Made by a program: the position numbers and the translations under genes. Of a DNA stretch of 64,000 nucleotides, positions 27,981 through 52,397 are shown one piece after another; the first letter of the stretch is position 1, and each line of letters begins with the position of its first letter. Source of the stretch: a virus; IMG/VR virus record IMGVR_UViG_3300009071_000006, one strand, 5' to 3'. Under the pieces are notes generated by a model that saw only the letters and a program-made list of their open reading frames with translations, did no database searches and was not told where the DNA came from.

Positions 27981-28580
27981 TTATTTTAAAATATCTTTGG
28001 TTTTATTGTTATTAATACTAACTTTGTTAAATAGCTGTTCTAGGGTTTTATAATCTAAGGCTAAGTGTTCTTTTAGTTTCTCTCTTTCTTTGCTTGTTAA
28101 CTCATACTCACTAGTACCCTTGTTGTCCCATAGGTCATCAAATTCTTTGCCATACATTTTGCCTAAATCTTCTTTTATTGAATTTGTAAACACTAGTCCT
28201 TTTAATAATTGTGGAGTTAATACTTTTAAATAATTTGCTAAGTACCAATGGTATCCTTCGCCTATGTGGTGTACATAATTTGTCTGCAACTCTTCTAGGT
28301 TGTCGATCAAACTATTTATGTCTTTATGCTTATCTAAAAAATTCTTCTCTCCATTAAATCTTAATTTTTGATTATGGCTTGTCTTTTTCTTTCTCCAATA
28401 AAATGCTGAGCAAAATCTTTCTACAGGATTGCGTATTGGTATTATGCTTTTAAATTGCGAATCTAACATGGGCGCTTGCACATGAATTGCAAAAAAAAGT
28501 ATAGACTGACTTTTAAGCATATTTCTTATAGTCATGCCTCCGCATTTTCCCACATGAATAAATTGTAAATTAGTTTTCAT
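27981..28580 (-). CDS. Family-2 sulfotransferase-like protein (paralogue 5, outside the main cluster)
   Basis: 5'-PSB-like FIHVGKCGGMTI and 3'-PB-like PIRNPVERFCSAFYW. Confidence 0.6.
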   Translation of the reverse strand: MKTNLQFIHVGKCGGMTIRNMLKSQSILFFAIHVQAPMLDSQFKSIIPIRNPVERFCSAFYWRKKKTSHNQKLRFNGEKNFLDKHKDINSLIDNLEELQTNYVHHIGEGYHWYLANYLKVLTPQLLKGLVFTNSIKEDLGKMYGKEFDDLWDNKGTSEYELTSKEREKLKEHLALDYKTLEQLFNKVSINNNKTKDILK

Positions 28581-32897: not shown

Positions 32898-33013
32898 TAT
32901 TTTAGAAGCTCTATAACGCCTATGGCTACAACTAGCCCTGCTATAATAAATATAATCTTTCCTTTATTAGAAAGCTTTGAGTAATAAGATTTTAATAATA
33001 ATAAGTTTTTCAT
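32897..33013 (-). CDS. Micro-ORF, 38-aa membrane peptide
   Basis: Own translation: MKNLLLLKSYYSKLSNKGKIIFIIAGLVVAIGVIELLK. Coupled at both ends (ATGA and TAATG overlaps). Confidence 0.35.
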   Translation of the reverse strand: MKNLLLLKSYYSKLSNKGKIIFIIAGLVVAIGVIELLK

Positions 33014-33486
33014 TTTCGCTCTGAAGGTTTAATTGGGAAGGGTGGGCGTGTCTCAGAGGTTAACTTCTCTAAGTGTTCCCTGTTACTCTTTGAGCATGAC
33101 GTAGCAGTCTTACGCGCTACAAGTATAGGAATGAATAAATATAACACTAATGCAATTGCGGCGACTATTAGCCATTTCTCAACTTTTCCTATAAACTCTT
33201 GAAACTTACCCTCTTGCGACTCCATACCTTTTTCTAAAGCATTCTTTGCTATAGTCTCTACATCTCCTGTAGAAAGTAGTTCAACAGTCTCTTGAAGTTC
33301 TTTATTTTCATCTAACAACTGTGCGCCTTTGCCTACGCCATAACCAATAATTGCACCTCCTCCTGCCATTGCAGGACCGCCTAAGCTTCCCACAACTGCT
33401 CCACCTGTAGCCCCCGCAGGAGCATAAAAAGATGACATCTTACAGCTTGTTAGTAAGATTAACACACTTAACCACCACCACTTCAT
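33010..33486 (-). CDS. Lipoprotein with glycine-zipper region and C-terminal TM helix (u-spanin-like topology)
   Basis: Signal peptide plus lipobox LLTSC. GATGGAVVGSLGGPAMAGGGAIIGYGVGKG glycine zipper. C-terminal WLIVAAIALVLYLFIPILVA. Confidence 0.55.
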   Translation of the reverse strand: MKWWWLSVLILLTSCKMSSFYAPAGATGGAVVGSLGGPAMAGGGAIIGYGVGKGAQLLDENKELQETVELLSTGDVETIAKNALEKGMESQEGKFQEFIGKVEKWLIVAAIALVLYLFIPILVARKTATSCSKSNREHLEKLTSETRPPFPIKPSERK

Positions 33487-33528: not shown

Positions 33529-34122
33529 CTATGCCCATGCCATACCCTTCTCACGAAGTAGCTTATAATCTTCTTTGTATAACTGTGCAAGGTCTTGCTT
33601 TAGCGAGTATGGCATTTTTTCTCTGCCTCTTGATCTAGATATGCTTTTTCTCTCAAGCTGTCTATCAAACGGCAAGCTCCACTCATCCACCATCGCTTCC
33701 CAATCGTTTTGTAGGTTGTGAAAATCTAGTAGCCTTAAATCATCTATGCCCTTATACATAAAAGAATATGAAGCAAAATGACAGTAGTGTCCCTTTGTGT
33801 TTTTATTTCTTTTACATATCTGCCAAAAAATTTCATGCATTGTAGTATTTCTTTGTAACGCTATGCTCCTCCAATTGTCATAACCCAAGAACCACTCTGA
33901 CTGTAGCCTCATGACGGGATCTCTTACTACAGAAAATGATTTATCCCACTCTTGCCCTAGTCCTTCAATCTGCAACCCTGTGTAGTGTTGATACCCTTTG
34001 TGTGGACAGTACAGGTATTCCTCTTGGCTCTTCCTTAGTTTTTTTATGCCCATAGCTTTCGTTATGGACGTGCCTCCTGTCCTTGGTATATGAAGAAATA
34101 ATATATTATCTTTTAATGGCAT
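33529..34122 (-). CDS. Family-2 sulfotransferase-like protein (paralogue 1)
   Basis: LFLHIPRTGGTSI and VVRDPVMRLQSEW. The start is uncertain: ATG at 34122, or TTG at 34149 as in the ORF track. Confidence 0.65.
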   Translation of the reverse strand: MPLKDNILFLHIPRTGGTSITKAMGIKKLRKSQEEYLYCPHKGYQHYTGLQIEGLGQEWDKSFSVVRDPVMRLQSEWFLGYDNWRSIALQRNTTMHEIFWQICKRNKNTKGHYCHFASYSFMYKGIDDLRLLDFHNLQNDWEAMVDEWSLPFDRQLERKSISRSRGREKMPYSLKQDLAQLYKEDYKLLREKGMAWA

Positions 34123-34155
34123 TACCTCTTTACTAATGCATGATGTCAATAAGCA

Positions 34156-34416
34156 TCAAACTGAAAGAATTGCGAGTGTTTCTAATTCCTTTTTTAGTTC
34201 GGGATATTTATTAGCTATCTTCCTCATTGCTTTTTTCTCTATTTGATATACTGCCTGTTTTGACATTACGCAATATTCAGCAATCTCTGCACAAGTATGT
34301 GGGTGAGTCATATTATCTACCATCTCTGATAGCTTTTCATTGATCTTCTTCGTCCTAACACCCGTCTTCTTGACGTTTCCTGCGTAACTTCGATTTTCTT
34401 TTCCTCGTTCATTCAT
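34156..34416 (-). CDS. Sigma-70 region-4-like HTH protein (86 aa)
   Basis: HTCAEIAEYCVMSKQAVYQIEKKAMRKI resembles sigma region 4.2 (..eEIAe.lg.S...V..ie.rAl.KL). Confidence 0.5.
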   Translation of the reverse strand: MNERGKENRSYAGNVKKTGVRTKKINEKLSEMVDNMTHPHTCAEIAEYCVMSKQAVYQIEKKAMRKIANKYPELKKELETLAILSV

Positions 34417-35038
34417 TGTTTATATAGCAAATATCTCCGTGTCCATTCTTCTTAAAATATTTATCTTCGTGTACTTTAGAAAAGTTGTTGTTTAACAAGA
34501 AAGCATTTAATTCATTTGCCAAGCACCCACCTTTATAAAATTCTTTTACCGAAGCTTCTACTACTAGCCTTTTAACATTATTTATGTATTCGCCAAAGCC
34601 TTTCAAGGCAAGTAGTTCCGCACCTTGGACATCCAATACTACATCAAGTAACCTGTCCTGCCATTTGGAAGTATCTAATATTTTTTCAATTGTAGTAGAC
34701 GTCAAATCTATAGAGTTAGTCTTTTCAAGCATATATTTCCACGCTTGAAGCTCATAGATAGAAGATGATCCTGCGTGTGAGTCTTTTTTATTTAAAATTA
34801 TATTAAACTGATAACTTTGTCCTGCCTTGTCTGTAATCAACTCATTCAAAGGAATGAAATTAGTTTTATGCATTGCATTGCAATTTTTTACATTGGCTTC
34901 CATGTATTCAAACTCTTCGGGAATAGCTTCTATAATAATTCCGTGACGATATTTTATATACTGACTGACGAATGCAAATCGACTTGACCCAATAAACAAT
35001 AGATCAACTCCATCCCCACTAGGTATTCTTTTATCCAC
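34409..35038 (-). CDS. FkbM-family SAM-dependent methyltransferase
   Basis: DLLFIGSS..., EAIPEEF, and LDVQGAELLALKGF...VVEA, matching the FkbM-type D.QG.E...L.G signature. Confidence 0.55.
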   Translation of the reverse strand: MDKRIPSGDGVDLLFIGSSRFAFVSQYIKYRHGIIIEAIPEEFEYMEANVKNCNAMHKTNFIPLNELITDKAGQSYQFNIILNKKDSHAGSSSIYELQAWKYMLEKTNSIDLTSTTIEKILDTSKWQDRLLDVVLDVQGAELLALKGFGEYINNVKRLVVEASVKEFYKGGCLANELNAFLLNNNFSKVHEDKYFKKNGHGDICYINNE

Positions 35039-35684
35039 AATAAGTCTCCCTTACATACTTCATATATTCTGCGTTCTGAATGTAATCTAAATCCTCGTCT
35101 GTCAAATTGGGTGTTTCTACATCAACTCTTGTGTTTCCTTTATGCGACAAAGTCCATTTAATTTTTTCGCCATTAGACTCATACAAATTTTTGAACCACT
35201 TAGTAAGGTCACCCAACCTTACAACTTCATCAAACATGACTCCCTTTTGCTTCTCTAAAATAAAGAAGTCCTTTAGTCTTGCCTCAACCCATAACAATGC
35301 CTTTCGCACACCTTGCTCGTTACACTCTAATGATCCCCATTGGTTAGGTTTTTCTCCGAATCTTTCATTGTGTTTAACAAACTGATTGAGCAAAGATTTA
35401 CATTGATCTATTGGGTTTCTAACGACTATGTATTTTTTATACTCATCGAATTTTTCTCTCCCATATAATCTGACGAATGCACCTGTGCCTCCATGCCCGT
35501 AATCTCTCGTATCGATGCCGTCACCTTGCTTCCTAAAAGATTCCATAGTGCATTCTTGGGGATGTATATTCTGACGATATGGTGGCTCTTTGTCGTAGTG
35601 AGACCTTGACCAAGTTGCCATCGTTGAACCCCCACATTTAGGATTATGGAACACTAGAAATTTATATTTATCTGATATTATCAT
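35031..35684 (-). CDS. Family-2 sulfotransferase-like protein (paralogue 2)
   Basis: FLVFHNPKCGGSTM and VVRNPIDQCKSLL. Confidence 0.6.
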   Translation of the reverse strand: MIISDKYKFLVFHNPKCGGSTMATWSRSHYDKEPPYRQNIHPQECTMESFRKQGDGIDTRDYGHGGTGAFVRLYGREKFDEYKKYIVVRNPIDQCKSLLNQFVKHNERFGEKPNQWGSLECNEQGVRKALLWVEARLKDFFILEKQKGVMFDEVVRLGDLTKWFKNLYESNGEKIKWTLSHKGNTRVDVETPNLTDEDLDYIQNAEYMKYVRETYCG

Positions 35685-35688
35685 AGCC

Positions 35689-36429
35689 TCAATCTAATTG
35701 AACAAAGTTGCAATTTGGTTTGTAGGATTTCTTAATATACCTGTAAACATTACTTGATCTAGTGCCTATAAATGTGGAAGATTTTTTTGCAATTTCTATT
35801 TCCGCAAAGAACTGTAAAAGTTCTTGTTTTAGGTATATTTTTTTATTGTTCTCTTTTTCTGAGTGTCCATCCTGCGATTCCTTTGTTAAGTGCAAAACTT
35901 TTAAAGATAATTTTTGCCTATCAATAAACTCTTTAGCTTCCTTTATGCTTTTGTAGTCATCTGTCATAAGGAAGATTGTATCTATATTGGTGGGGCAGTA
36001 ATGAATATAATCCGAGGACTCGAATCGCTTTCCCTCAATTACTCCTGTAGTGCTTGCCTGTCTGCACTCCTTTTCTCCTACTTTATCCCCTCTCCTTATA
36101 TGAGCGCATACATAGGAATCAGGAAGGATTAGCTCATTTATTATATTGTCAATTTCAGATTTAAAATTCTCTGTGTAGTCAAAAGTAAATCCGAAAGGAA
36201 AATATTTATGATAAAGCTTCTCTCGTTTGTGTTTAACCAAATCCCTTCTTCCGAATGTAAAATTATTTGGAAATTGAAATAGAGATGAAATGCAGAACTT
36301 TCTAAAATATGGAGAGGCAGACTCTACATGAATTTTGTTTTCTGTGCCATGAATATATTTGTAATAAAATCCAATCAAGTTTTGCAATTCTGCACATAGC
36401 CCACTCCTGCCAATTGTAAATGTTTTCAC
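35689..36429 (-). CDS. Fucosyltransferase-superfamily (GT11/GT23/GT65-like) glycosyltransferase
   Basis: N-terminal GRSGLCAELQN (compare GGLGNQ), CAHIRRGDKV (HxRRGD motif), and C-terminal FIGTRSSNV. Confidence 0.45.
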   Translation of the reverse strand: MKTFTIGRSGLCAELQNLIGFYYKYIHGTENKIHVESASPYFRKFCISSLFQFPNNFTFGRRDLVKHKREKLYHKYFPFGFTFDYTENFKSEIDNIINELILPDSYVCAHIRRGDKVGEKECRQASTTGVIEGKRFESSDYIHYCPTNIDTIFLMTDDYKSIKEAKEFIDRQKLSLKVLHLTKESQDGHSEKENNKKIYLKQELLQFFAEIEIAKKSSTFIGTRSSNVYRYIKKSYKPNCNFVQLD

Positions 36430-37118
36430 ACGAATTTAATTTTCTTACTTTTTATTTTTTCTAGAATAGTAAGAGCTTCTCTTTCTCTTTCCTGCGAATT
36501 GAATTTTTGATTATCCTTATCCCATCGAGTGACTGCGGATCGAAATCCTGCGGTGTGATGATATACGAGGTCTGCATATACTCCAAACATCACAGGATGA
36601 ATGCCCATAGATTTAGTTCTGTAGAGCTTTTTCCATTTAAGATTTTTTTCTTCAACTTGATCCTTTAATACTCCTCCTGTGTCAAATTTCACTTTCCATG
36701 TTAAGCCTTGGTTTCTCCATGTTCCAAATTTGCAAAATGCAAAAGATGGATGCGGAAAAGTGTGATTCATTTCTTTTCTCACAATCGACACAAAGTCATA
36801 TTTACTAATCCAATTTTCTATGAATTTATTTAAGGGTGCTATAGGAAAAGAATCACCATCAAGAAATAAAATTATGTCATCATCTGATGCATCTTTTATT
36901 TCTGACACAAGCTGATCAAGTTTTTTTGCGTGACCTTTGCTTCCGTCAATTTCAATAGAGCTTTGTCCTGTAAATGTAAAATTGATATCATCCAAATCAA
37001 TCTCAATCCCATCAATGTAGCTATAAACTTGGTAATGCTTTAAGTTTTGCTTGAGATAGCTAGTTTGAATAGGAATCCATTGGCTAGACTTGTAATGTAT
37101 TGTTAGGACATAAATCAT
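36426..37118 (-). CDS. GT-A-like glycosyltransferase (DxD)
   Basis: IILFLDGDSFP DxD-type motif after an alternating beta/alpha N-terminus. Tentative. Confidence 0.4.
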   Translation of the reverse strand: MIYVLTIHYKSSQWIPIQTSYLKQNLKHYQVYSYIDGIEIDLDDINFTFTGQSSIEIDGSKGHAKKLDQLVSEIKDASDDDIILFLDGDSFPIAPLNKFIENWISKYDFVSIVRKEMNHTFPHPSFAFCKFGTWRNQGLTWKVKFDTGGVLKDQVEEKNLKWKKLYRTKSMGIHPVMFGVYADLVYHHTAGFRSAVTRWDKDNQKFNSQEREREALTILEKIKSKKIKFV

Positions 37119-37723
37119 TTTTTTATAGCAAAACTACGATCCGAGAATGTTGCGATGTTTTCTTTTATAAATTCACTTCCAAAGAACTCATCTAATGCAT
37201 CCTTTACCCTATCTTCTACGGGAGGATGATAATCATGCCCACAAAGAAACCCACCCTGCTTGATCTTAGGAAGCCAATTCTCAATATCTTTTATCACCGC
37301 ATCCTTTGAGTGATCTCCATCTAAGTAAACAAAATCTAATGAGCTTTCATCTGCTGATAAAGAAGCTCTGTCGGAGTAGTCGTGAAACACTTTGATTATC
37401 GTCTTGTCCTTATACCTTCCAACTCTTTCAATAAATTCTTTTTTTATTTCATCCCAATAAATTTTCTTTTTATCAAACGCCCAATTTGACTGACGATAAC
37501 TTTCATCCTTTCCCCAAATATCCACAAAGGTAGCTTCTTTTGGCTGATGTGATAGAAATACCTCAGAAGAAACTCCCCTAAAAGAACCTACCTCACAGAT
37601 TTTTTTGTCATTAATCCCACCGATATAATCAATTAAATCAAAAAGCCCTTGGGTATGACTAGGTATGTCATTCCCGTTCGGGTTCATTCTTCTTTCATTT
37701 AGCAGTCTTTCTTTAGTATTCAT
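37115..37723 (-). CDS. Class I SAM-dependent methyltransferase (Methyltransf_24/TylF-like)
   Basis: ICEVGSFRGVSS (motif I) and VYLDGDHSKDAVIKDIENWLPKIKQGGFLCGHDY. Confidence 0.6.
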   Translation of the reverse strand: MNTKERLLNERRMNPNGNDIPSHTQGLFDLIDYIGGINDKKICEVGSFRGVSSEVFLSHQPKEATFVDIWGKDESYRQSNWAFDKKKIYWDEIKKEFIERVGRYKDKTIIKVFHDYSDRASLSADESSLDFVYLDGDHSKDAVIKDIENWLPKIKQGGFLCGHDYHPPVEDRVKDALDEFFGSEFIKENIATFSDRSFAIKK

Positions 37724-38297
37724 AATTAAAATATTCTATATCCTTTGCGTATTTTTCCGCAACGATTTGACGAGTTTCATCATCGTAGTATTTAGTGTAA
37801 TGCATATGTGACGATTTGTTTCTATGGGGAAGCTCTTCATCAATACCTACCTTTACGCAGAAAGCCTTGAAGTCTTTTTCTATGTTTTCAAATCTTATAA
37901 AGTTTTTTATTTTGTATTTTTTAGATTCAATCTTATCTAGCAGAGGAGTTGTTTTAAAATTTAATACAAACTGCTTAAAGTCTTTAGGGTCTTGACTCGC
38001 CTTTCTCCTTGTCCATTTCCACCAAGAAACCTCCCTGTCAAAAGGGTTTCGTATAGACACGCATAGATGGTATTCATCTAGTGATCCATATACTTGATCA
38101 TCCCATAATTTTTCATAACGAGACAGGGGTAAATGCTTTGCATATTTAGTTCCAAAACTATCACCAAAATCAAAGCAATCTTTCCGTTGCTCTGTTACTT
38201 TAGAAAAGTCTATGTATTTCCTAAGAGCAGTAACCAAGGAAACCGAACCTGTTTTTTCGGGAGTAATGAGTATAAACTTTTTCTCAAAGCTAATCAT
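37713..38297 (-). CDS. Family-2 sulfotransferase-like protein (paralogue 3, divergent PSB loop)
   Basis: FILITPEKTGSVSL and SIRNPFDREVSWW. Confidence 0.5.
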   Translation of the reverse strand: MISFEKKFILITPEKTGSVSLVTALRKYIDFSKVTEQRKDCFDFGDSFGTKYAKHLPLSRYEKLWDDQVYGSLDEYHLCVSIRNPFDREVSWWKWTRRKASQDPKDFKQFVLNFKTTPLLDKIESKKYKIKNFIRFENIEKDFKAFCVKVGIDEELPHRNKSSHMHYTKYYDDETRQIVAEKYAKDIEYFNYEY

Positions 38298-38949
38298 TTA
38301 AAACCCAAAAGTCATCCTGTGCGCATCCTGCTAGGTTTCCTGCAATCTCTAAAGTGTATCCTTTATCTGATAGGAATTCTCTTTGTATGTTCATCTGCTC
38401 ACCATTATCAGTATAGGCGTTATGCTCTATGGTGATAACTCGAAACTTGTACTTATCCCAAGGGATCAATTTCATAGCAGGAGTAGTTGCTTCCTCAATG
38501 TCAATTGTTAGGTAGTCGATTACTTCGGGGAAACCTTGCTTATTGAACTCTTCTTCGTAATTCAATTCTAATGCATCACAGGGAGCGTATAGCATATCTT
38601 TGTTTCTTACTCCTTGCCAATCCCTTGGAATCCAATCGAGCATATCTATGGATATCCCTCGCCAACCTAAATTACGCTCAAGGAAATATGTGTTTGATAG
38701 AGAAATCGATTGATTGCAACCAATGTCTACCCATACCCCATCTCTTTTTCCGTTTAGATGCTCAACCACAAACTTGTCCTGCCCAAGTTGGGAGTAAAAT
38801 ACTACTTCAGATGGCAATCCTTCTGCATTGACAGGCTGATGCGTTCGCAAAGTTTGATACTTTGGATAAGGTGATGCTCGTACAAAACCATCCCATTCTT
38901 CATTAATAATCGGTGCTTCTAATTTATTTATTTTATATGTGTCTTTCAT
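38290..38949 (-). CDS. FkbM-family (Methyltransf_21) methyltransferase
   Basis: SQLGQDKFV...GVWVDIGCNQSISLSNTYFLERNLGWRGISID and ITIEHN. Confidence 0.55.
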   Translation of the reverse strand: MKDTYKINKLEAPIINEEWDGFVRASPYPKYQTLRTHQPVNAEGLPSEVVFYSQLGQDKFVVEHLNGKRDGVWVDIGCNQSISLSNTYFLERNLGWRGISIDMLDWIPRDWQGVRNKDMLYAPCDALELNYEEEFNKQGFPEVIDYLTIDIEEATTPAMKLIPWDKYKFRVITIEHNAYTDNGEQMNIQREFLSDKGYTLEIAGNLAGCAQDDFWVLND

Positions 38950-39815
38950 CTATAGAATTTTAAATTTTCGGGCTGTCCGTAATATTTCATCTTGTCGTAT
39001 TGTCCGCCAAATACTGATTCGTTAATATATGTATTACCAAATTGTTTTGCATAGTAAATCGCTTTCGTAAATCCACTATGATTTATAAACAAATGAGAGC
39101 ATCCAAGCATCTGTAGGACTTGCCTATCAAAGTCGTGATAGTCCCCAATATCTACACGAACTCGATCTATCTCTCCTAGTTTTAAGAGATCATTACTTGT
39201 TCCTGCCCTTCCTGCATCCGAGGATATTATTGTTATCTTCATTTCTGCACCCGAAGACATAGAGATATTATTTTTTATCCAATCAATTAGACTTACATAG
39301 TAATCATATGTATATCCGCACTCTCTCATATAATCTGATCTATCTCCTCGCCTTACTTGAATAATGACCTCATCAATTTTCTCTATCTCAAATCCATAGT
39401 AAAATAATTTTTGGTATTCTACTTTTGGTCTATTCTCAACTTTCCATTTAATGAGTTTATCGTGATGCCACATATTTAACTTCCAAGGCTCTACCCTTGG
39501 TGTTCCTTTTACTATGCAAAGAGTGCCATCATCGGAGTCTTCTATAGCATTGCAAATTTCTTTAAAGTCTGCATAAGGTAATCCGTTCCATTTAATTGTG
39601 TCTGCAACAATAATTTGTTTATCAAATTCACTCGGTGCCTTCATGTGTTTCTTGCATCCTTCTTCATTGAAGAATCTGCTATGTATTTTATCCCAATAAA
39701 ACTCATTCCACACAGGATGCACACCTGCTTCTTCCGCAAAAGCCCATAATGAATAGAGAGTCCTAGCTTGATCCCCACTTCGTCCACCATGCATATCAAA
39801 TTGTACTCCCTTCAA
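38946..39815 (-). CDS. Fucosyltransferase-superfamily (GT11-like) glycosyltransferase
   Basis: HGGRSGDQARTLYSLWAFA (compare GGLGNQMFQYA), IIQVRRGDRSDY, and C-terminal LGCSHLFINHSGFT. Confidence 0.45.
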   Translation of the reverse strand: MKGVQFDMHGGRSGDQARTLYSLWAFAEEAGVHPVWNEFYWDKIHSRFFNEEGCKKHMKAPSEFDKQIIVADTIKWNGLPYADFKEICNAIEDSDDGTLCIVKGTPRVEPWKLNMWHHDKLIKWKVENRPKVEYQKLFYYGFEIEKIDEVIIQVRRGDRSDYMRECGYTYDYYVSLIDWIKNNISMSSGAEMKITIISSDAGRAGTSNDLLKLGEIDRVRVDIGDYHDFDRQVLQMLGCSHLFINHSGFTKAIYYAKQFGNTYINESVFGGQYDKMKYYGQPENLKFYR

Positions 39816-40471
39816 AACTCAAATCCCCACTTTTCTATATCACGCATAAAATAATCTTCTACAATTTTTTTACTTTCTTCGTTATATGTATCTTGCCTAT
39901 TTGATTTGGTCGAGGATTTATTAACATGACCTAATTTATTTTCTATCTTTAATTTTTTACAGAGTGTATCGTAATCTGCATTTAGATTTTCATATCTTCC
40001 AATAAAATCCATTTCCCTGTCGGCATTATCGAAGAAGGAAACTTGATCGCCCTGCATCCAATCGTAATTTGTTTTTATCCACTCATTAAAATCTACACCT
40101 TTTGTAGACTTTTCTTTTTCTATATAGTGATCATCTCCTTCCTTCCACCTTTCGTAACCCATATCTTCTAAGACTGCCCAATTGACGGGCTTCCAAGGAA
40201 TAATCTTTTCATTCTGATAATATGTCCAAAAAGATAGAACTAAATCCCACGGGTTTCTAATAAATGAAAAGCAAAAATATTCCGACAAATCTATCAAATG
40301 CTCATAGAACCAATCTAATTTAGAATGCTTTCTTATCCACGGATATTTCTCAAATTGCTCATCCCAAGTTAGTTCATCATCTTTGAATGCTTGAGTAAGT
40401 GTATATTCAATTGATGAGGTTGCAGTCTTCGGGACTTTAATGTAGATAAATTTATTTTTTTCCGAGATCAT
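39812..40471 (-). CDS. Family-2 sulfotransferase-like protein (paralogue 4, divergent PSB loop)
   Basis: FIYIKVPKTATSSI and FIRNPWDLVLSFW. Confidence 0.5.
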   Translation of the reverse strand: MISEKNKFIYIKVPKTATSSIEYTLTQAFKDDELTWDEQFEKYPWIRKHSKLDWFYEHLIDLSEYFCFSFIRNPWDLVLSFWTYYQNEKIIPWKPVNWAVLEDMGYERWKEGDDHYIEKEKSTKGVDFNEWIKTNYDWMQGDQVSFFDNADREMDFIGRYENLNADYDTLCKKLKIENKLGHVNKSSTKSNRQDTYNEESKKIVEDYFMRDIEKWGFEF

Positions 40472-42554
40472 TTATCGAGTTGTCACGAAGTATGAATTTT
40501 TTTGGTGATCCTGCAAGCTCCCAATCTTTTTTATTTTGATCCTCACCCATATATTGCGGAACTCCACGATAATGATTATATCTTGCTACCTCCTTATCGA
40601 TCCAAATTATATCTGAACTATCTATCGGATTTGCTTCATGTACATTTAGTCCGTCTTGCATCTTGCCCAAAACTAAATTTTTAGGCATATGAGATTCGTA
40701 TCCCCAATTTATTATATCCTTTACTGCTTTTCCTCTTATTCGTTGATCAAATATTCGTTGCTTAAATTTTATTACTTTAGCATTTGGATATTCATCAATT
40801 AATTCTCTAATGTCATTGTGTTTTTTTAGAACTAAATATTCATCAGGGTCAGCAAAGAACCAAAAGGTCGAAGGTTCTTTGATCGTAGAATCCTTCAATG
40901 ATTCCCATTGACTAAGAGGATAATTATATTCGTGATCTTTTCCTTTTTCCCAAGGAATAACTTCGACATTAGGATAGTCTGCTTCAATCTGTTTTAGCAT
41001 TTCTAATATTTTATCATCTGAAAGATCGTCAAAGTATTCAATGTCGGGTTTTTTCTTCCATCGTTTTTTTGCTTTTTCCTCTTCGGTTAATTCTCTTCCT
41101 CCCTCTGCCCACTCACTATCATCGAATGACAAAGTGCCATTGTCATAGATTCTGATTTTCTCAAATCCTAAATCCATGTGATGATCTATCCATTCCTTTA
41201 GCCAAGGCACTTCAATTCGCCTAAGAATAATTGCTGATAGTCCTGTATTTTCATAACGATTTATTCTTTTTGAATATATAATTTTATCAAAAGGTGGACT
41301 GCCTTCATCCATATATATTTTTTTTCTTGATTGATCTTTGTGATCAAGCGGAGAACCGCAATAATGATATATTTCTATATCATCCCTATCTGCGTAATTG
41401 TGACTATCTCCAACTTTTAAATTATGTATTGTAGAGTTCCTAGATACTTCTCCATCTATTAAGCATTTTCTCATTTTCTCATCCATGCTCCAATTGGTGA
41501 TAGAAGATACAGACTTGCCTATTTTTCTTTCGCTAAACAACTTTGATGGAATCCTGATACTTGAACTATTAATGAGACCACTTTCAGTTAAGTAGCCTTG
41601 TATGTTATTGTGTTTATGTAAGTGTAGAAACTCATCAGGGTCTATGTATAGCCACTTATACTTTATGTCTTTGCAGGAGTCGTACACCATCTGCATTTGA
41701 CTTTCAGGGTAAGGGTAGTCGTGGTTTACTCCCTGCACCCACTCTACTATTTCTACTTCAGGATGTGCATTTGCTATATTATAAAGCTCTCTAGTTGTTT
41801 CTTCGTTATCCTTGTCGGTAATATAATATATGTTTGGTTTTTTGCTCCACTTGTACTGTTTTTCAAATTGATCAAATTCGTTTTCATATTGAGTATCATT
41901 ACTTATGAACCCATTATTATATATTAAAAATTTTGTTACTCCTAATCTTTTATGGTGATTAATCCATTCATTTAACCAAGGTAATTCTATTCTAGGTAAT
42001 ACAATAGTTGCTATACCTATATTAATTTCTTGTGGTGCAAAAGTATGATTATAAATAAAAGTAGTTTTACGAAAGGTTTCTACTTTAGTATTACTTCCAT
42101 TAAAATTAAATAAATTCCAATTGTCTAGTGCATTGTAGTTTTTAAAATCATATTTAGTTAAAGGTTTACTATATATCTTTTTTGCTCTTTTTTCTTCCTT
42201 ATATCTTTTTGATTTTATTAAACTCCATGTTTTCCAAAATTCTTTGTGTAACCTAAATAATTTTATAAATGTTTTTGTATCTTTATGCCTTAGGTCTAAA
42301 CATATTACACCCAAGTCCCACTTACATATAGCAAAAGCTTTGTCATCTAAGTGTATATTTACTTCTTGCTCAGATATCCATTTAACATGATCTTGTATTA
42401 TTATAATTTTGTCATGAGAATAAATAAACTTCTCTAACAAATTAATCAGATTTTTTACCTCACTTGTTACGAGATAAGAATATCCAAATTTTATACAGTA
42501 TTGTAAAACTTGTTTGTTTGACTCTGAAAATACAAATATCGTTCTATCATTCAC
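40452..42554 (-). CDS. Tandem GT92/DUF23-like glycosyltransferase (two catalytic repeats plus N-terminal domain), GTG start
   Basis: Repeat 1: TIVLPRIELPWLNEWINHHKRLGVTKFLIYNNG...YIDPDEFL. Repeat 2: SAIILRRIEVPWLKEWIDHHMDLGFEKIRIYDNG...FADPDEYL. Confidence 0.55.
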   Translation of the reverse strand: MNDRTIFVFSESNKQVLQYCIKFGYSYLVTSEVKNLINLLEKFIYSHDKIIIIQDHVKWISEQEVNIHLDDKAFAICKWDLGVICLDLRHKDTKTFIKLFRLHKEFWKTWSLIKSKRYKEEKRAKKIYSKPLTKYDFKNYNALDNWNLFNFNGSNTKVETFRKTTFIYNHTFAPQEINIGIATIVLPRIELPWLNEWINHHKRLGVTKFLIYNNGFISNDTQYENEFDQFEKQYKWSKKPNIYYITDKDNEETTRELYNIANAHPEVEIVEWVQGVNHDYPYPESQMQMVYDSCKDIKYKWLYIDPDEFLHLHKHNNIQGYLTESGLINSSSIRIPSKLFSERKIGKSVSSITNWSMDEKMRKCLIDGEVSRNSTIHNLKVGDSHNYADRDDIEIYHYCGSPLDHKDQSRKKIYMDEGSPPFDKIIYSKRINRYENTGLSAIILRRIEVPWLKEWIDHHMDLGFEKIRIYDNGTLSFDDSEWAEGGRELTEEEKAKKRWKKKPDIEYFDDLSDDKILEMLKQIEADYPNVEVIPWEKGKDHEYNYPLSQWESLKDSTIKEPSTFWFFADPDEYLVLKKHNDIRELIDEYPNAKVIKFKQRIFDQRIRGKAVKDIINWGYESHMPKNLVLGKMQDGLNVHEANPIDSSDIIWIDKEVARYNHYRGVPQYMGEDQNKKDWELAGSPKKFILRDNSINDLGKK

Positions 42555-42555: not shown

Positions 42556-45500
42556 TTACTCTGTAAAACATTCGTTTTCTGCTGTGAGAAGCCTTGTGTG
42601 ACTGAATGTATTTATTTCATACCATGATGTAGGAGAAGGTGATCGATTATAATAATCGTTTATCGGATTGTATGGAGGTTCAGGTTTTCTCCATCTATCT
42701 CTCCTATCAGGCATAGTAGAACTGAGACTGTGTGGAAAGTTTTGCCTATAATCATCAAAGTCTCGAAATCCTCCCTGTGTTGTACTTCCATGATCAGGTC
42801 TCGGCCATGCACCATTCCTTGCTTGATTGTAAGGTGCAAGCTCTGCTGATAAACGCTTGTCCTGCACTAGTAGCTTTGTGTTACCCGCTATGTTTTTCCA
42901 TGATGAGCTTTGTGCGCTTGTTGACCATTTAGTAAATGTACTATCATCGGCTGACTGTGTTGTCACTCTTATGTTAACAGGTCTTGAGCTTGATGTATTT
43001 GTTCCTCGTCTTACCTCTCCCCAAAATGCATCTCCTGCACCTGTAGCATAAAAGGAGTGTCCTGACTTTGCTTGATTTCTAGTAAACTCTCTGTGTCCTC
43101 TATGATACTGTCTTCGTTGCTTTGCTATTCGTTGCCTTTGTTCGTAATCTGCCCCTGCAACAACTGCTTCCATGATCTTTCCGTTTTTAAGTTGATCATT
43201 TAAATATTCAAATTCTACAAAATTATTAATTGGGTCATCGCCATATGTGTTTAGTCGTCTATATCTTGCATGATTTCGATCTTCATTTATTTGATCGTAT
43301 CTTTTTGCTATATTTACATTAAATCTATCAGAGTATGCTTCATAAAAGTCATCTTTGTAATTTGTATTAGTGTATGCACTAGGATTGCTTACCCACAATT
43401 GCCCTGTATCTGTTCCTTTATATTGATGCAAAAAGCTAATTCCTTCTGTCTCACTTTTCTCACCGCACAGACCATAATGCTTTATGTCTGTAGAGTCCTT
43501 GTCCATATTTTCGTAACTAAGAGCATTCATCGTAGTAGTAAACGACCCCAATGCTGTAGTTTCAAATGTCCTAATTAAGGTATAATCAGAAGTCTTCACA
43601 AGCTCATACTTCATTGTCTTAAACTCTGTCTCGCCTCCCTTAAATGCCACCTCACTTGTGCTTGCTGTAGATGTAGTGTAATAATCTCCGTAGTACTGTG
43701 ATGTCCCTTCTACTTGAGTAATGTCTGTCGTTGTAAACTCATTTGCTACGGAGTCGTCCTCAAACACACGAAATGTATAAGGAGGTGCAGTTATATCAAA
43801 AACTACATACGATATAATTTCATCAGGCTTGAAGTTTTTATTATCATAAGCACCTAAAGCTAAACTTGAAACTTCTGAAAACTTTCCATATGCTTCAACA
43901 CTTGGGTACTCACTTTTTATTGTGCTACTTGATTGTAGTATTGTCTTCGTAGTAAATGTTTCGTCTACCATTGCGGTATAAGGAAACACATCTCTTATTG
44001 GTGTTACGTATGTCCATGAGCCTCCAAAGTATTTAGGCTTACAACTTACATATGCAAATCCACGAATTTCATTATAGGTTAAAGTAGTTGATCCTGTTGT
44101 TGACTGACTTCCTTCTGCAATAACATCATTCTTTGCGTACAAATTAGTTACTGTGTATGTAATGTCAGACAAAACATGAGCGCCATGACTTATATCTACG
44201 ATTCTACCTGTCATACTATTTAAGTATGTTACATACTTGCCAATATCTTTGGTAGAACGAGGTGAAGTGTAAGCTTTAGGCTTTGACCAAACTGAAGAAG
44301 TTAATTTATGTTCTCCTTGCGCCCCTACAGTAGTTTCGTATGTAAGGCTTTTTACTCCTTTTAAAAATGCATTTAATCTGTTTTTTAATTTATTTCTTCC
44401 TCTGTCCACAGGTGGCACGCAAGGAATTGGAAATATCTCTGCTGAAGAAGTAGGAATGCCAAAAGGACCGTATATATTCCACGTCCAATCAGATTTCGTT
44501 TCCCCTGATTGACCCCATACTGAAAGGGTGTCAGATAAATCTGTACAGTCTGTACCTGTGTTTCCTGATTGATCTGTTGTTACTGTTTCCTGTGATGCAG
44601 TTCCTGCTACCAACTCCGTGCGAAAAAACTGTTCTGTCTGTGGAGTTGTTGCTGTAGTTTCATATATTGTTTCATAGGTGTGACTCCAAAATGTCCAAGA
44701 AACCTGAGTGAAGCAACAAGTAGCAATAGGTGGCTCAATTTCAGGAACATCTTTAGGTGGTTGTTGAAACTTACATTGTTTCCATTTGCCTATTTCTTCT
44801 AATCCATTCAGCCACGGGTATCCATACTTACATCTAAGATAAGAAAAGATGTAAAGCATATCGTCATTTACTTCATCTAGCTTAGTAGGTGAGTATGTAA
44901 ACATACGATTTCCACCATTCTCTGAAAGTAGTTCTTGATCAAAGAACATCCATTCAAAATGCCTAATTCTTCTTTCTTTACTTATGCTTGCTGAATCAAC
45001 TTCGGTAACAGATGATGCATTTCCTATAGTTATATTTTCTGCTGAAAGCGAATAGCATAATTTAGATGTTACTGTATACCAAGCTTGCCCATTGTATGTG
45101 CAATTTAAGCCATTGGCATTTGCTACTATTGCAAATAAGTCTAGCTTTTGAGCATCTAGACCAACTTCAATAGAGTATTCTTTATTAAAAGCTGTTTCGT
45201 CATCTGACTTACCTGATATATCTAACGAGCAATCAGTTTGTGTTGATGACCACCACTTCCCATGTGTTGGCGATATGATATGTGTTGTTACAGCAGGAAA
45301 ACCCATGCTATCCCTGTCACTTCTTTTTAATGTAAATTCATTTGTGCCTTCATTTATGCTCTTTACTACATATTCTTCTGATGCCTGTCCTTCTTTATTA
45401 AAAGGATTAAGAATGTGTACATTACCTACGCTTTTTACAACTCCACTTTTTATTGGCTGTTTTATGCTTTCGTAAAGCTTGATAGTAAACGATCCTACTG

Positions 45501-46353
45501 TGTTTGTTCTATCAAAGTCTTCTAATCTAAATCCAATTGTTGCATTTTTAGTTGCCGTAAAAGATTTGGTATATTCGCCTCCGTTTATGTAGGTTGCATT
45601 GTAGTCACTTATTGGAATCCCTTGAGAGTTTGATATTCCAAAACTTATAACATTAGCCTTCCCGACGTTTCCTTGTGGGATTTGAAAATTGCCATCTACA
45701 ATAGTTCCATCTTCTCTTGTAGCCTTGCCTGTTACCTTAATTGTATAATGGTTGCCCTGCTTTAGCTCTGTAGTGCTGTGTGTATATTCATACTCAGATG
45801 CAGAGTAAGTAATTTCCTCTAAGTAGTTTGACTTAATGTATTCCGCAAAAAAGTCTTCCCTGAATTTTATTTTATCTCCTACTTCAGGTAGGTTTCTTTT
45901 GTATCTTACCTCTATATAGCTTGAGGTCTTTGTTGTGTCGCCCATAAACAACAGAGTTTGATCACCTCCGTCTTTAAGGCTTATCTTACTATCTCCTGTG
46001 CCATGAATTAGCTCAGTAAGCCCTACTGCCATCCAAGAGTCCTTAACTCCTTGTATCGCATCTGTTGATCCTTGTACTCCATCTAGGAAACTTAATGCCT
46101 TTACTGTTCTGCTATGCCCTCCATCAATATCTTTACACGCATCTTCGTGAGTCCATAACTCCCAATTGTTTACTCCCTTAACATTAAGTATACTAGAGTC
46201 TCGTCCTGCCCTGTCTTTTGTTTGTATTTCCTCAAATTTTTCAACGCGCGGGTATTGTCCTGTAAAAACTAGATTATTTGTTTTTGGATTTTGCCTAGTG
46301 TCTCCGCAATGATCTAAGCTGTGAATGTCTATAAGTTCTGTTAAATTACTCAT
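42556..46353 (-). CDS. Giant virion/tail-associated protein (1265 aa)
   Basis: ORF track. Beta-rich and Thr/Ser/Tyr-rich, in the tail module. Shares the C..SWTFWS motif with the 1617-aa protein. Confidence 0.6.
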   Translation of the reverse strand: MSNLTELIDIHSLDHCGDTRQNPKTNNLVFTGQYPRVEKFEEIQTKDRAGRDSSILNVKGVNNWELWTHEDACKDIDGGHSRTVKALSFLDGVQGSTDAIQGVKDSWMAVGLTELIHGTGDSKISLKDGGDQTLLFMGDTTKTSSYIEVRYKRNLPEVGDKIKFREDFFAEYIKSNYLEEITYSASEYEYTHSTTELKQGNHYTIKVTGKATREDGTIVDGNFQIPQGNVGKANVISFGISNSQGIPISDYNATYINGGEYTKSFTATKNATIGFRLEDFDRTNTVGSFTIKLYESIKQPIKSGVVKSVGNVHILNPFNKEGQASEEYVVKSINEGTNEFTLKRSDRDSMGFPAVTTHIISPTHGKWWSSTQTDCSLDISGKSDDETAFNKEYSIEVGLDAQKLDLFAIVANANGLNCTYNGQAWYTVTSKLCYSLSAENITIGNASSVTEVDSASISKERRIRHFEWMFFDQELLSENGGNRMFTYSPTKLDEVNDDMLYIFSYLRCKYGYPWLNGLEEIGKWKQCKFQQPPKDVPEIEPPIATCCFTQVSWTFWSHTYETIYETTATTPQTEQFFRTELVAGTASQETVTTDQSGNTGTDCTDLSDTLSVWGQSGETKSDWTWNIYGPFGIPTSSAEIFPIPCVPPVDRGRNKLKNRLNAFLKGVKSLTYETTVGAQGEHKLTSSVWSKPKAYTSPRSTKDIGKYVTYLNSMTGRIVDISHGAHVLSDITYTVTNLYAKNDVIAEGSQSTTGSTTLTYNEIRGFAYVSCKPKYFGGSWTYVTPIRDVFPYTAMVDETFTTKTILQSSSTIKSEYPSVEAYGKFSEVSSLALGAYDNKNFKPDEIISYVVFDITAPPYTFRVFEDDSVANEFTTTDITQVEGTSQYYGDYYTTSTASTSEVAFKGGETEFKTMKYELVKTSDYTLIRTFETTALGSFTTTMNALSYENMDKDSTDIKHYGLCGEKSETEGISFLHQYKGTDTGQLWVSNPSAYTNTNYKDDFYEAYSDRFNVNIAKRYDQINEDRNHARYRRLNTYGDDPINNFVEFEYLNDQLKNGKIMEAVVAGADYEQRQRIAKQRRQYHRGHREFTRNQAKSGHSFYATGAGDAFWGEVRRGTNTSSSRPVNIRVTTQSADDSTFTKWSTSAQSSSWKNIAGNTKLLVQDKRLSAELAPYNQARNGAWPRPDHGSTTQGGFRDFDDYRQNFPHSLSSTMPDRRDRWRKPEPPYNPINDYYNRSPSPTSWYEINTFSHTRLLTAENECFTE

Positions 46354-48335: not shown

Positions 48336-48339
48336 CTTG

Positions 48340-52083: not shown

Positions 52084-52397
52084 TATTCAAAAACGTACCT
52101 GATTGACCCTGCCTGATTTCCGTAAACTTGAACAGGAGCTTTAACTCTTGTCCCTTCTCTTCTTAAATCAAATGCAAATGTCTCGCCTGACTCTACAGGG
52201 AATCCATTACTTGCATCCACATCTATAATAGCACCAACGCCATCTCTTTCTTCAGTCCATCCTACATAAACTACAAAGGGCGCAGCCGATGTGTTTTTAA
52301 TTATTCCATGAGTAAGAATTTTCTTCTCATTACCTCGTCCACCTTCAGGGATTAATTCATGCATTCCTGCACCTGTAAAATTGTACGCACCTCTCAT
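52083..52397 (-). CDS. Small beta-rich virion-associated protein
   Basis: ORF track. ATGA overlap with the fibre gene. Confidence 0.55.
   Translation of the reverse strand: MRGAYNFTGAGMHELIPEGGRGNEKKILTHGIIKNTSAAPFVVYVGWTEERDGVGAIIDVDASNGFPVESGETFAFDLRREGTRVKAPVQVYGNQAGSIRYVFE

Follow-up and report, generated by a model that had tools for sequence, protein, structure and literature searches.

Sulfotransferase-rich glycan gene island next to the tail genes of an uncultured marine tailed phage

Background

It is established that giant viruses encode glycosylation of their own, and more recently this has been established for mycobacteriophages as well; the glycosyltransferase islands of cyanophages have stood unexplained for about twenty years. 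Here we describe an island of twelve genes at positions 33529 to 42554 of a 64,000-nt stretch of viral DNA (IMG/VR record IMGVR_UViG_3300009071_000006; this whole stretch is referred to below as the window), in which genes for four sulfotransferases or sulfotransferase-like proteins are interleaved with genes for glycosyltransferases and methyltransferases. Judged from its gene content, the island very probably forms a module for the synthesis of a sulfated and methylated glycan that depends on the sulfate donor 3'-phosphoadenosine-5'-phosphosulfate (PAPS). Virus-encoded glycan islands as such are already known; what is new is that sulfotransferase arrays dominate them, that they occur in several phage morphotypes, and that they contrast consistently with bacterial loci.

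The closest described counterparts are found in giant viruses. The glycan clusters of the Megavirinae Moumouvirus australiensis and Cotonvirus japonicus, like the island, encode soluble single- and multi-domain glycosyltransferases and a predicted sulfotransferase, and the fibrils of these viruses are glycosylated; the Tupanvirus clusters share with the island the presence of sugar methyltransferases, and sulfation in the Megavirinae is likewise predicted only (PMC10117803). These are giant viruses of amoebae, however, with one sulfotransferase per cluster and with their own sulfate adenylyltransferase/adenosine-5'-phosphosulfate (APS) kinase and nucleotide-sugar pathways, whereas the virus described here is an 84-kb tailed phage that has four to five sulfotransferases but lacks a PAPS gene, and whose island contains no nucleotide-sugar gene. 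In the mycobacteriophages Che8, Corndog and Myrna, phage glycosyltransferases decorate the capsid and the tail tube (Freeman 2023, cited via PMC12363180 and PMC12619734). That glycosylation was shown experimentally, while the system of the present phage is predicted. Neither sulfotransferases nor methyltransferases, but only glycosyltransferases, are mentioned for these phages in the sources cited here (two in Maravista, PMC11256854); their hosts are Actinobacteria, and the role proposed, shielding from antibodies, has no marine equivalent.

Among large, virulent T4-like cyanophages, P-SSM2, S-SCSM1 and S-SCSM2R resemble the present phage in carrying variable sets of glycosyltransferases (GT11, GT25), epimerases, cytidylyltransferases and methyltransferases, in an account that mentions neither sulfotransferases nor sulfation (PMC12801897). 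In the Synechococcus phage lineage ACG-2014f, one sulfotransferase of the family (gp234) lies within an island of glycosyltransferase, methyltransferase and epimerase genes, 1.7 kb from a tail-fibre gene. These cyanophages differ in being myoviruses with genomes of ~200 kb or more and at most one sulfotransferase, and their islands are usually read as serving host-surface modification. The Ralstonia jumbo phage phiRSL1 likewise has a member of the family (ORF232), which is grouped with three glycosyltransferases and two nucleotidyltransferases (ORF232-238); phiRSL1 is a 231-kb myovirus with a single sulfotransferase and its own annotated APS kinase (ORF238), and its cluster adjoins a thymidylate-synthase-family gene, a hint of a DNA target. 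The role of phage sulfotransferases "remains unclear" (PMC10580990), and we found no paper that describes what these enzymes do in phages; apart from that, the literature searched mentions single predicted sulfotransferases only in giant viruses (PMC10117803; PMC11625862).

Organization of the island

The island comprises the following genes, given in the order of transcription, and a fifth sulfotransferase-like gene lies ~5 kb downstream of it. Values are E-values and bit scores.

40452..42554, minus strand: 700-aa protein, residues ~1-170 without assignment, then two GT92-like GT-A domains (Pfam, self-alignment, PDB profile)
39812..40471, minus strand: sulfotransferase, 219 aa (Sulfotransfer_2, 1.2e-12, 49 bits; phrog_3347, 3e-19; motifs PKTATSS and RNPWDLVLS)
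38946..39815, minus strand: GT-B glycosyltransferase of fucosyltransferase-like fold, 289 aa, motif QVRRGD (AlphaFold2 and Foldseek)
38290..38949, minus strand: borderline FkbM-type methyltransferase, 219 aa (Methyltransf_21, PF05050, 1.1e-4, 22.9 bits, cut-off 22.7)
37713..38297, minus strand: sulfotransferase, 194 aa (Sulfotransfer_2, 8.8e-6, 26.5 bits; phrog_3347, 1.5e-13)
37115..37723, minus strand: class I S-adenosylmethionine (SAM) methyltransferase, 202 aa (Methyltransf_24, 2.5e-14, 54.5 bits)
36426..37118, minus strand: 230-aa protein with a conserved DxD motif (LDGDSFP), no family match
35689..36429, minus strand: minimal fucosyltransferase-fold enzyme (FUT8/NodZ/POFUT-like), 246 aa, motif HIRRGDK (AlphaFold2 and Foldseek)
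35031..35684, minus strand: divergent sulfotransferase-like protein, 217 aa (Sulfotransfer_2, 14.3 bits, 0.044, below cut-off; motifs PKCGGST and RNPIDQCKS)
34409..35038, minus strand: FkbM-type methyltransferase, 209 aa (Methyltransf_21, PF05050, 7.1e-7, 29.9 bits, cut-off 22.7)
34156..34416, minus strand: helix-turn-helix (HTH) protein, sigma-70 region-4-like, 86 aa (Sigma70_r4, 2.1e-4, 21.1 bits, below cut-off 24.1)
33529..34122, minus strand: sulfotransferase, 197 aa (Sulfotransfer_2, 1.8e-6, 28.7 bits)
27981..28580, minus strand: fifth, outlying sulfotransferase-like protein, 199 aa (motifs GKCGGMT and RNPVERFCS; below the Pfam cut-off)

The listing of open reading frames (ORFs) agrees with a preliminary description of this DNA, which had reported twelve consecutive, mostly overlapping minus-strand genes: the island is tightly packed from 42554 down to 33529 (~9 kb), and when the junction to the upstream 1265-aa gene is included, nine of the twelve junctions are overlaps of 4-20 nt, with gaps of 1, 4 and 33 nt at the remaining three. 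The gap between the last giant post-tape-measure protein gene and the island is the one of 1 nt, and a 42-nt spacer separates the last island gene from the next ORF (33010-33486). The same description saw no promoter or terminator, and this also holds when consensus matches are counted against shuffled sequence across 32-47 kb, where promoter-like sites (49 vs 57.9 in shuffled sequence) and terminator-like sites (5 vs 6.8) are not enriched and none internal to the island exceeds chance. Since every sizeable ORF of the 64-kb window lies on the minus strand, the shared orientation of island and tail genes is uninformative.

None of the twelve proteins contains a membrane segment (maximum 19-residue hydropathy 1.22), and the island therefore encodes no polytopic protein of the lipid-carrier priming enzyme, flippase or polymerase type. 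A search of the window with an APS-kinase query found no homologue and Pfam annotations covering ~80 of the 84 kb of the genome show no PAPS-synthesis gene, as had been noted earlier. NCBIfam models gave no match to the first ten island genes except a sub-threshold one to FkbM. The G+C content is 0.345 in the island and 0.372 in the rest, with unremarkable tetranucleotide usage, and on these figures a recent horizontal acquisition of the island was considered and dropped.

Sulfotransferases

The curated cut-off of Sulfotransfer_2 (PF03567), 22 bits, is passed by the 219-aa, 194-aa and 197-aa proteins (the last also in its 206-aa mechanical form) and missed by the 217-aa and 199-aa proteins. 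The two PAPS-binding motifs, PKxGxT/S (5'-phosphosulfate loop) and RxPxxRxxS (3'-phosphate; RNPxxRxxS), nevertheless align in all five copies of the window. The four in-block sulfotransferases proposed at the outset thus all carry the motifs, three of them with family support above the cut-off, and the 217-aa protein (E 0.044) stands as a divergent candidate. R72, P74 and S80 are invariant in the alignment of the five paralogues, and in 46 viral homologues K15, R83 and S91 are conserved positions. In the PDB, a profile of the five-paralogue alignment found 24 sequences, sulfotransferases with few exceptions, at weak E-values (best 0.0015); the paralogues diverge too far for their alignment to serve as the seed of a scan. 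The window sulfotransferases are 31-42% identical to copies in other phages and at most 22% identical to one another, and because they are nearer to the copies of other phages than to each other, the paralogues would seem to be old, specialised subfamilies rather than recent duplicates.

The individual copies differ in how widely relatives were found. The 219-aa protein had nearly no matches in a word-indexed protein search, while the 194-aa protein is one of a large subfamily of viral proteins marked by the C-terminal motif YYDDETR...YAKDIEYF, and relatives of it, at most 42% identical, occur in all 77 IMG/VR loci fetched (these and the other comparison loci are numbered L001 upward). The 217-aa protein has weak matches to sulfotransferases in seven viral loci. 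Translation of the 197-aa protein probably starts with the ATG at 34122, and public assemblies also give it 197 aa, the mechanical ORF of 206 aa beginning at a TTG at 34149; used as a query it found no match in the IMG/VR scan, and its orthologues precede a spanin-like gene in L007 (54%), L160 (47%) and L161 (33%). The outlying 199-aa protein, reported earlier as a fifth sulfotransferase, keeps that assignment through its motifs and through its homologues, being 30% identical (E 1.6e-28) to genes within the sulfotransferase arrays of L103 and L105; both Pfam matches, to Sulfotransfer_1 (0.007) and Sulfotransfer_2 (16.2 bits, 0.012), lie below cut-off.

Glycosyltransferases

The tandem GT92/DUF23-like repeat proposed for the 700-aa protein is confirmed. 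Its halves are 34% identical to each other (E 1e-42), Glyco_transf_92 (PF01697) matches in two stretches with 33.4 bits (4.6e-8, cut-off 23), and Pfam also reports Glyco_tranf_2_4 in four stretches (69 bits, 3.8e-19). Together with the GT92 family profile the protein has the acidic DxD-type motif, with D128 and D130 (DPDE) invariant in the alignment of the repeats, and the best PDB match of a profile of the two halves is the GT92 galactan synthase GalS1 (8d3t, E 0.007). Homologues adjoin sulfotransferases in the viral loci L100, L092, L135, L149 and L091 and in L178; as a query in the IMG/VR scan the protein found no match.

Two island proteins had been placed in the fucosyltransferase superfamily on the strength of HxRRGD motifs. 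Their predicted structures bear out the superfamily (GT23 FUT8/NodZ, GT65/68 POFUT, GT37, GT11) for both, and the motif as written is present in the 246-aa protein (HIRRGDK) and absent from the 289-aa protein (QVRRGD). At the level of Pfam neither reaches a fucosyltransferase cut-off, the 246-aa protein scoring 13.9 bits against 27.6 for FUT8_N_cat and the 289-aa protein having no Pfam match at all. The AlphaFold2 model of the 246-aa protein (pLDDT 89.4, pTM 0.88) finds FUT8, NodZ, POFUT1 or POFUT2 as all of its top 50 Foldseek matches in the PDB (best E 3.4e-6, TM at most 0.65), and its structural analogues in viruses, annotated as fucosyltransferases, come from the Synechococcus phages S-SRM01 and S-SCSM1 and from giant viruses. 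It has more than 183 homologues, some with precomputed PF19745 or PF10250 annotations, and R112, R113, G114 and D115 of its motif are invariant in 48 sequences. The 289-aa protein had nearly no matches in the word-indexed search, and a full HMMER scan yielded 28 remote relatives, whose consensus reads SIHIRRGD, so that the window copy has Q instead of H. Alignment of the 289-aa and 246-aa families with hhalign gave an E-value of 7.8e-5, on the motif region, and the AlphaFold2 model (pLDDT 89.4) matched the Arabidopsis fucosyltransferase FUT1 (AtFUT1; E 5e-6, TM 0.52) and POFUT1 first, followed by GT9 heptosyltransferases.

The 230-aa protein, described earlier as GT-A-like with a DxD motif, does have the motif; the GT-A assignment finds no profile or PDB sequence support. 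The protein has no match in Pfam, PHROG, NCBIfam or, by profile, the PDB, and hhalign against the GT92 halves gave a probability of 1.7%, that is, no significant relation. Its only two homologues each stand directly after a sulfotransferase, in the viral loci L133 and L142, and its being a glycosyltransferase is a conjecture. A glycosyltransferase-like gene within the tail module (52476..53669, 409 aa) that had been added to the pathway has no such support either, no Pfam, PHROG, PDB or locus homologue of it having been found.

Methyltransferases and a helix-turn-helix protein

The two FkbM-type methyltransferases of the preliminary description both exceed the Methyltransf_21 cut-off, at 29.9 and 22.9 bits against 22.7. 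The 209-aa protein also matches TIGR01444 (5.8e-8, 33.3 bits) below that model's cut-off of 37.7 and has a homologue in L135, and a homologue of the 219-aa FkbM-type protein lies within the sulfotransferase island of the same locus. The third methyltransferase, called TylF-type before, is a methyltransferase by its Methyltransf_24 match, and the TylF profile is not among its matches at E-values up to 0.1; RMNT_CmcI matches weakly (0.075). Homologues of this 202-aa protein adjoin sulfotransferases in L099, L084, L096, L097, L135 and L175.

The 86-aa protein is a small HTH protein whose match to Sigma70_r4 spans 30 residues, and the sigma region-4-like label given to it stays below cut-off. It is kept at the same position in L007 (54%) and L160 (46%), and HTH proteins of the GerE and sigma-factor types recur in the flanks of other sulfotransferase islands; a function as a regulator is possible.

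An accessory island that varies between relatives

The island ends at the following gene, which is 43-75% conserved in relatives and has a hydropathy peak of 2.98 at residue 106:

33010..33486, minus strand: spanin-like protein, 158 aa, downstream boundary of the island (lipobox LLTSC and C-terminal transmembrane segment, unimolecular-spanin-like)

In L007, the closest relative, whose large terminase subunit (TerL) is 89% identical to that of the present phage, the order HTH gene, sulfotransferase gene, spanin-like gene is kept and the gene set upstream of it differs, comprising two RgpF-type genes, a cytidylyltransferase, another sulfotransferase, a methyltransferase and a Ser/Thr-rich 272-aa protein, together with a fragment, recognised on reading the sequence, of a dTDP-glucose-dehydratase-like gene. 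The upstream genes differ again in L160 and L161. In distant relatives, with spanin-like proteins 43-52% identical to that of the window, the spanin-like gene comes directly after genes for giant proteins of 937-2331 aa and a protein of ~675 aa, and there are no glycan genes. Because the distant relatives are without the block and the close ones carry another gene set at its site, the block is an accessory, variable island and not a fixed part of the tail operon. The earlier view of a block fused to the tail-fibre operon is accordingly withdrawn, and what stands of the pathway proposed with it is a phage-encoded set of exclusively soluble, PAPS-dependent and methylating enzymes.

The 272-aa protein of L007 (3560-4378 of that locus), which is rich in Ser, Thr and Gly, has no family match and lies between the methyltransferase and HTH genes, could be a small fibre, a decoration protein or an acceptor.

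Related islands in other phages

A single sulfotransferase of the family has 148 relatives in IMG/VR contigs, and islands similar to the one described here, with three to eight sulfotransferases per 20 kb, are common among the marine phage contigs of that database. In the 54 viral loci of at least 12 kb, which were baited with a sulfotransferase and some of which come from the same or near-identical contigs, one copy was counted in 4 loci, two in 21, three in 13, four in 5, five in 6, six in 3 and eight in 2. Homologues of the GT92, fucosyltransferase-like, 230-aa, FkbM and Methyltransf_24 genes of the window are interleaved with sulfotransferases in these islands, and a Pfam census of 149 non-sulfotransferase ORFs found mostly glycosyltransferases (GT32-like, GT2, GT92, GT90, GT25, GT77-like, Caps_synth), nucleotide-sugar enzymes and methyltransferases.

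The flanks of the islands hold genes for tail sheath, sheath stabiliser, clamp loader, PhoH, ribonucleotide reductase, DNA polymerase and RecA/UvsX. By these flanks, many of the contigs are T4-like myoviruses, and the idea that the related islands are all fragments of giant viruses is dropped. An APS-kinase-like gene occurs in five other viral islands (L096, at 1373-2176, L101, L144, L091 and L133); the encoded proteins share 41-47% identity with phiRSL1 ORF238 over its N-terminal domain, and the one from L096 finds APS kinases in the PDB at E 2e-6. The presence of this gene in five islands supports a real sulfation chemistry, and some phages thus seem to boost the supply of PAPS.

Cultured phages present a different picture. 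A megablast search of the island and two related islands against 50,697 phage records found no match, and a sulfotransferase homologue is present in 50 of these records, namely phiRSL1, Stenotrophomonas phage DLP_6, the ACG-2014f lineage and two uncultured megaphages; among the records listed each has it in one place, except one that has it in two. Multiple sulfotransferases are thus essentially absent from cultured phages, which have at most one or two copies. The remark made earlier that such multiplicity is undescribed in tailed phages holds for cultured phages and for the functional literature that we found; in uncultured marine contigs it is common. Sulfotransferase-rich islands of marine phages are a widespread, functionally undescribed class.

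Proposed acceptor of the glycan

The enzymes themselves do not name their substrate, and the sugars, the order of the reactions, the time of expression and, above all, the acceptor are what we infer. The genes immediately upstream of the island are these:

42556..63947, minus strand: upstream tail module, with the tape-measure C-terminus and then proteins of 582, 200, 1617, 409, 104, 1247, 661 and 1265 aa (by position)

The 995-aa ORF at 60960-63947 encodes the C-terminal portion of a tape-measure protein of 1757 aa, whose gene begins outside the window, past position 64000; this protein matches PF10145 (PhageMin_Tail), and the gene for the 526-aa capsid protein lies further upstream. The giant proteins, with Ser plus Thr contents of 16-21%, have no Pfam or PHROG match, and the 1265-aa protein also has no PDB sequence match. 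They can be called tail-tip or fibre proteins by position only, and their earlier designation as giant tail proteins accords with their place after the tape measure and has no counterpart in either family database.

In the pathway that we propose, the island would probably be transcribed with, or just after, the tail genes, and its soluble enzymes would assemble a short oligosaccharide of the fucose/galactose type in the host cytoplasm, the sugar types being suggested by fold and family only. Sugars would be added by the GT92-like domains and the fucosyltransferase-fold enzymes, two of each, and perhaps also by the 230-aa protein; the three SAM methyltransferases would O-methylate them, and the four to five sulfotransferases, with differing specificities, would O-sulfate them at several positions with host PAPS. 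The acceptor would be proteins of the virion itself, the best candidates being the tail-tip or fibre proteins, rich in Thr and Ser, whose genes immediately precede the island, and the particle would thereby carry a negatively charged, methylated glycan coat. We tentatively favour a virion protein as acceptor over host envelope glycans and DNA, with a probability of about 0.4.

Two observations speak for it: the viral islands have shed every membrane component, and the present island abuts the fibre genes. Soluble glycosyltransferases without lipid-carrier or export machinery are what a system of the virion-glycosylation type would comprise, and to our knowledge the experimentally established uses of soluble virus-encoded glycosyltransferase clusters are cytoplasmic decorations of the virus's own macromolecules. 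The fibril-glycosylation clusters of giant viruses, with their sulfotransferase and APS kinase, offer a precedent (PMC10117803). Several points weigh on the other side. The junction of tail-fibre and lysis genes is a classic site for unrelated cargo, which makes position weak evidence, and Ser plus Thr contents of 16-21% are ordinary for fibre proteins, which weakens the argument from composition. Distant relatives have giant tail proteins without an island, and so the island is not needed to build such a tail. The L007 island contains RgpF-type rhamnan-synthesis and cytidylyltransferase genes that are typical of cell-wall polymer pathways, the islands of T4-like contigs do not consistently adjoin structural genes, that of ACG-2014f lies among host-like metabolic genes, and no initiating protein-glycosyltransferase was identified among the island genes.

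Some of these points lead to the host surface instead. Soluble enzymes could act at the cytoplasmic face on lipid-linked O-antigen, capsule or exopolysaccharide intermediates of the host, and a new surface glycan, sulfated and methylated, would leave the cell through the host's own flippase, polymerase and ligase. Receptors would be masked, which would exclude superinfection and reduce the loss of progeny to debris or already infected cells, or else grazing and aggregation would change. This is the standard reading of the glycosyltransferase/epimerase islands of large cyanomyoviruses (PMC12801897). It also agrees with the PHROG category of the sulfotransferase ("moron, auxiliary metabolic gene and host takeover"), with the RgpF and cytidylyltransferase genes of L007, with the position of the ACG-2014f island among hli, psbA, ferredoxin and other host-like genes, and with the differing gene content of islands in close relatives; bacterial surface-glycan loci vary between close relatives in a like manner.

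The bacterial loci bear on this reading in both directions. In diverse bacteria 142 relatives of the sulfotransferases were found, at 25-36% identity; they belong to the same Sulfotransfer_2 family, presumably carry out PAPS-dependent sulfation of sugars, and often stand beside polytopic membrane proteins as in polysaccharide loci. The arrangement differs from the viral one: 46 of 53 cellular loci have one copy and two have three, so that at least three copies occur in 29/54 viral and 2/53 cellular loci, and a protein with at least four transmembrane segments lies within 6 kb of the sulfotransferase in 24/53 cellular and 0/54 viral loci (0 of 1131 ORFs), the two sets having been retrieved with different queries. 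Sulfotransferase multiplicity is thus far higher in viruses than in cells, and neither the island nor the 54 viral loci contain the membrane components that mark Wzx/Wzy- or ABC-dependent polysaccharide loci. Some twelve enzymes would imply a new oligosaccharide, yet no polytopic lipid-carrier priming enzyme is encoded with them. Serotype-converting phages of the GtrABC/Oac type are temperate and work with membrane-embedded proteins; here no island protein has a membrane segment and no integrase was seen in ~80 of 84 kb, so that the phage appears to be virulent. We also know of no lytic phage for which remodelling of host polysaccharide with soluble glycosyltransferase clusters has been experimentally established. 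On this balance, remodelling of the host surface is a possible function of the island, somewhat less likely than decoration of virion proteins.

One of the two cellular loci with three copies deserves separate mention: L178, a 47-kb contig (PBIO01000024.1) of a metagenome-assembled genome (MAG) labelled "Halobacteriovorax sp.", also has a Methyltransf_24 gene and a GT92 homologue 34% identical to that of the window, and it looks like a phage contig or a prophage binned into the MAG. L177 ("Flavobacteriaceae MAG", 3.1 kb), the top match, may be misbinned phage DNA of the same kind.

A third product class would be made in the cytoplasm and be unrelated to virion surface and envelope, namely a sulfated glycolipid, an oligosaccharide, a small-molecule glycoside (serving, for instance, in signalling, storage, osmotic balance or inhibition) or a modified host protein. 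Sulfotransferases, like methyltransferases of the FkbM and Methyltransf_24 types, also act in the tailoring of natural products and of molecules resembling Nod factors. The 246-aa protein has NodZ among its structural matches, the island specifies no acceptor, and the function of phage sulfotransferases has been called unclear (PMC10580990). Pfam scans of the twelve island proteins, however, found no scaffold-forming enzyme (polyketide, non-ribosomal peptide, lipid or chitin-oligomer synthase), and the 149-ORF census of related islands points mostly to glycosyltransferases and nucleotide-sugar enzymes; we regard such a product as improbable.

If virion proteins are the acceptor, a sulfated coat could affect adsorption, aggregation in marine gels, decay, and sulfur and carbon flux, and the sulfotransferases, with their products on virions, would be a toolbox of regiospecific carbohydrate sulfotransferases. 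If instead the host envelope is modified, the island would clearly exemplify how a lytic phage can alter the surface chemistry of its host. In either case this class of island adds a distinct chemistry, with up to eight sulfotransferases and sometimes an APS kinase, to abundant marine phages. The generalisation that many marine siphovirus-like and T4-like lineages coat their virion proteins with sulfated, methylated, fucose-rich glycans by means of their own specialised sulfotransferase arrays, methyltransferases and glycosyltransferases of eukaryote-like type is one that we hold to be rather doubtful at present. Were it true, these would be the first sulfated glycoconjugates shown to come from a virus-encoded pathway, chemically akin to sulfated algal polysaccharides, which are abundant in spring blooms; the coat could alter the charge of virions, how readily they stick to particles, their decay or grazing, and could even bait the polysaccharide-uptake receptors of hosts.

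A separate, probable DNA-modification block

The same genome holds genes known from clusters for glycan hypermodification of DNA (bioRxiv 10.1101/2023.12.21.572611; PMC8256090; PMC13229309), namely two TET-associated glycosyltransferases (TAGTs), several ParB_N proteins, a C5 methylase and an epimerase. They differ from the island in forming a block of their own, the island itself containing no TAGT:

25033-25914, minus strand: RmlD-like epimerase next to TerL
24434-25036, minus strand: ParB_N, weak
23622-24437, minus strand: TAGT (E 5e-32)
22135-23625, minus strand: ParB_N fused to an N6/N4 DNA methylase
20853-21326, minus strand: CxxCxxCC protein
20302-20898, minus strand: ParB_N
8290-9414, minus strand: C5-cytosine methylase

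A second ParB_N-TAGT pair lies outside the window (L256, 14077-15802). The block running from TerL through the epimerase, ParB_N and TAGT to the ParB_N/N6-N4 methylase is kept whole in L008 and in its TerL-epimerase part in L007. Neighbourhoods with ParB, an epimerase, the terminase and structural genes are described for post-replicative DNA glycosylation (bioRxiv 10.1101/2023.12.21.572611; PMC13229309), and by this resemblance the block is likely to be a DNA-glycosylation or hypermodification module. The epimerase, which had been counted among the genes of the island pathway, sits within this conserved block and more likely belongs to it. No TET/JBP dioxygenase was found among 39 further window ORFs or in the precomputed annotations of the rest of the genome; the 198-aa neighbour (21542-22138) or a 207-aa protein of L256 could be a dioxygenase.

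With such a block in the genome, the island might extend or decorate TAGT-attached sugars on hydroxymethylated pyrimidines, giving a methylated or sulfated DNA glycan, and so block host nucleases. The presence of two ParB_N-TAGT pairs, the ParB-fused N6/N4 methylase, the C5-cytosine methylase and the epimerase next to TerL is in keeping with this, and phage DNA can bear mono- to trisaccharides made by repurposed glycosyltransferases of the lipopolysaccharide or teichoic-acid type (bioRxiv 10.1101/2023.12.21.572611; PMC13229309); in phiRSL1 a thymidylate-synthase-family gene and an APS kinase accompany the sulfotransferase and its three neighbouring glycosyltransferases. The island, however, is ~9 kb away from the TAGT block of the window, with TerL and ~20 ORFs between them, and the two do not vary together, the TAGT block being kept in L008 and the epimerase also in L007, where the island gene set differs. 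No TAGT homologue lies within 10 kb in any of the 77 viral sulfotransferase loci, and since no sulfotransferase island elsewhere carries a TAGT, the island and the DNA-modification block are treated here as independent. The lack of a TET/JBP domain in the sequences just named also counts against a DNA target, and the DNA-glycan preprint does not mention sulfate (bioRxiv 10.1101/2023.12.21.572611). Decoration of DNA-attached sugars by the island is therefore in our estimate decidedly improbable, and there is only a very slight chance that phages bear sulfated glycans on their DNA.

Genome context and further observations

Marine metagenomes, from the North Sea and elsewhere, have repeatedly yielded assemblies of the genome of ~83.9 kb, broken at different places. 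Because the assemblies agree in size (83,876-83,962 bp) while their ends differ, the genome is indicated to be complete and circularly permuted or terminally redundant. TerL, the small terminase subunit (TerS), the portal, an HK97-type capsid protein and the tape measure identify its source as a tailed phage, which is probably siphovirus-like and virulent and whose TerL is at most 33% identical to that of any cultured phage. In the order of transcription, the portal, capsid, small head and tail genes, tape measure and giant proteins precede the island, and the spanin-like gene, TerL, the DNA-modification block, TerS and the replication genes come after it. From the lipobox (LLTSC) of the spanin-like protein, the host may be Gram-negative. 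A sigma-70-like promoter close to the consensus, with an extended -10 element, lies at 33521-33494 and ends only 8 nt before the start codon of the spanin-like gene. No tRNA gene was found in the 64-kb window.

Other genes of the window include an Amidoligase_2 protein (353 aa) and a class-II glutamine amidotransferase (272 aa) at 16123-18037, a pair also carried by OM43 phages (PMC10580990), and an AIG2/gamma-glutamyl-cyclotransferase-like protein at 32214-32681, 14 kb from that pair. The 391/401-aa product of 4517-5722 has a precomputed AcrVA2-like (PF26125) Pfam match in public assemblies and is possibly an anti-CRISPR-related protein. Two stretches of the minus strand, at ~10300-12300 and ~18400-19600, contain no ORF of at least 100 aa in a genome that is otherwise dense, and could be regulatory regions, origins or genes for non-coding RNA.

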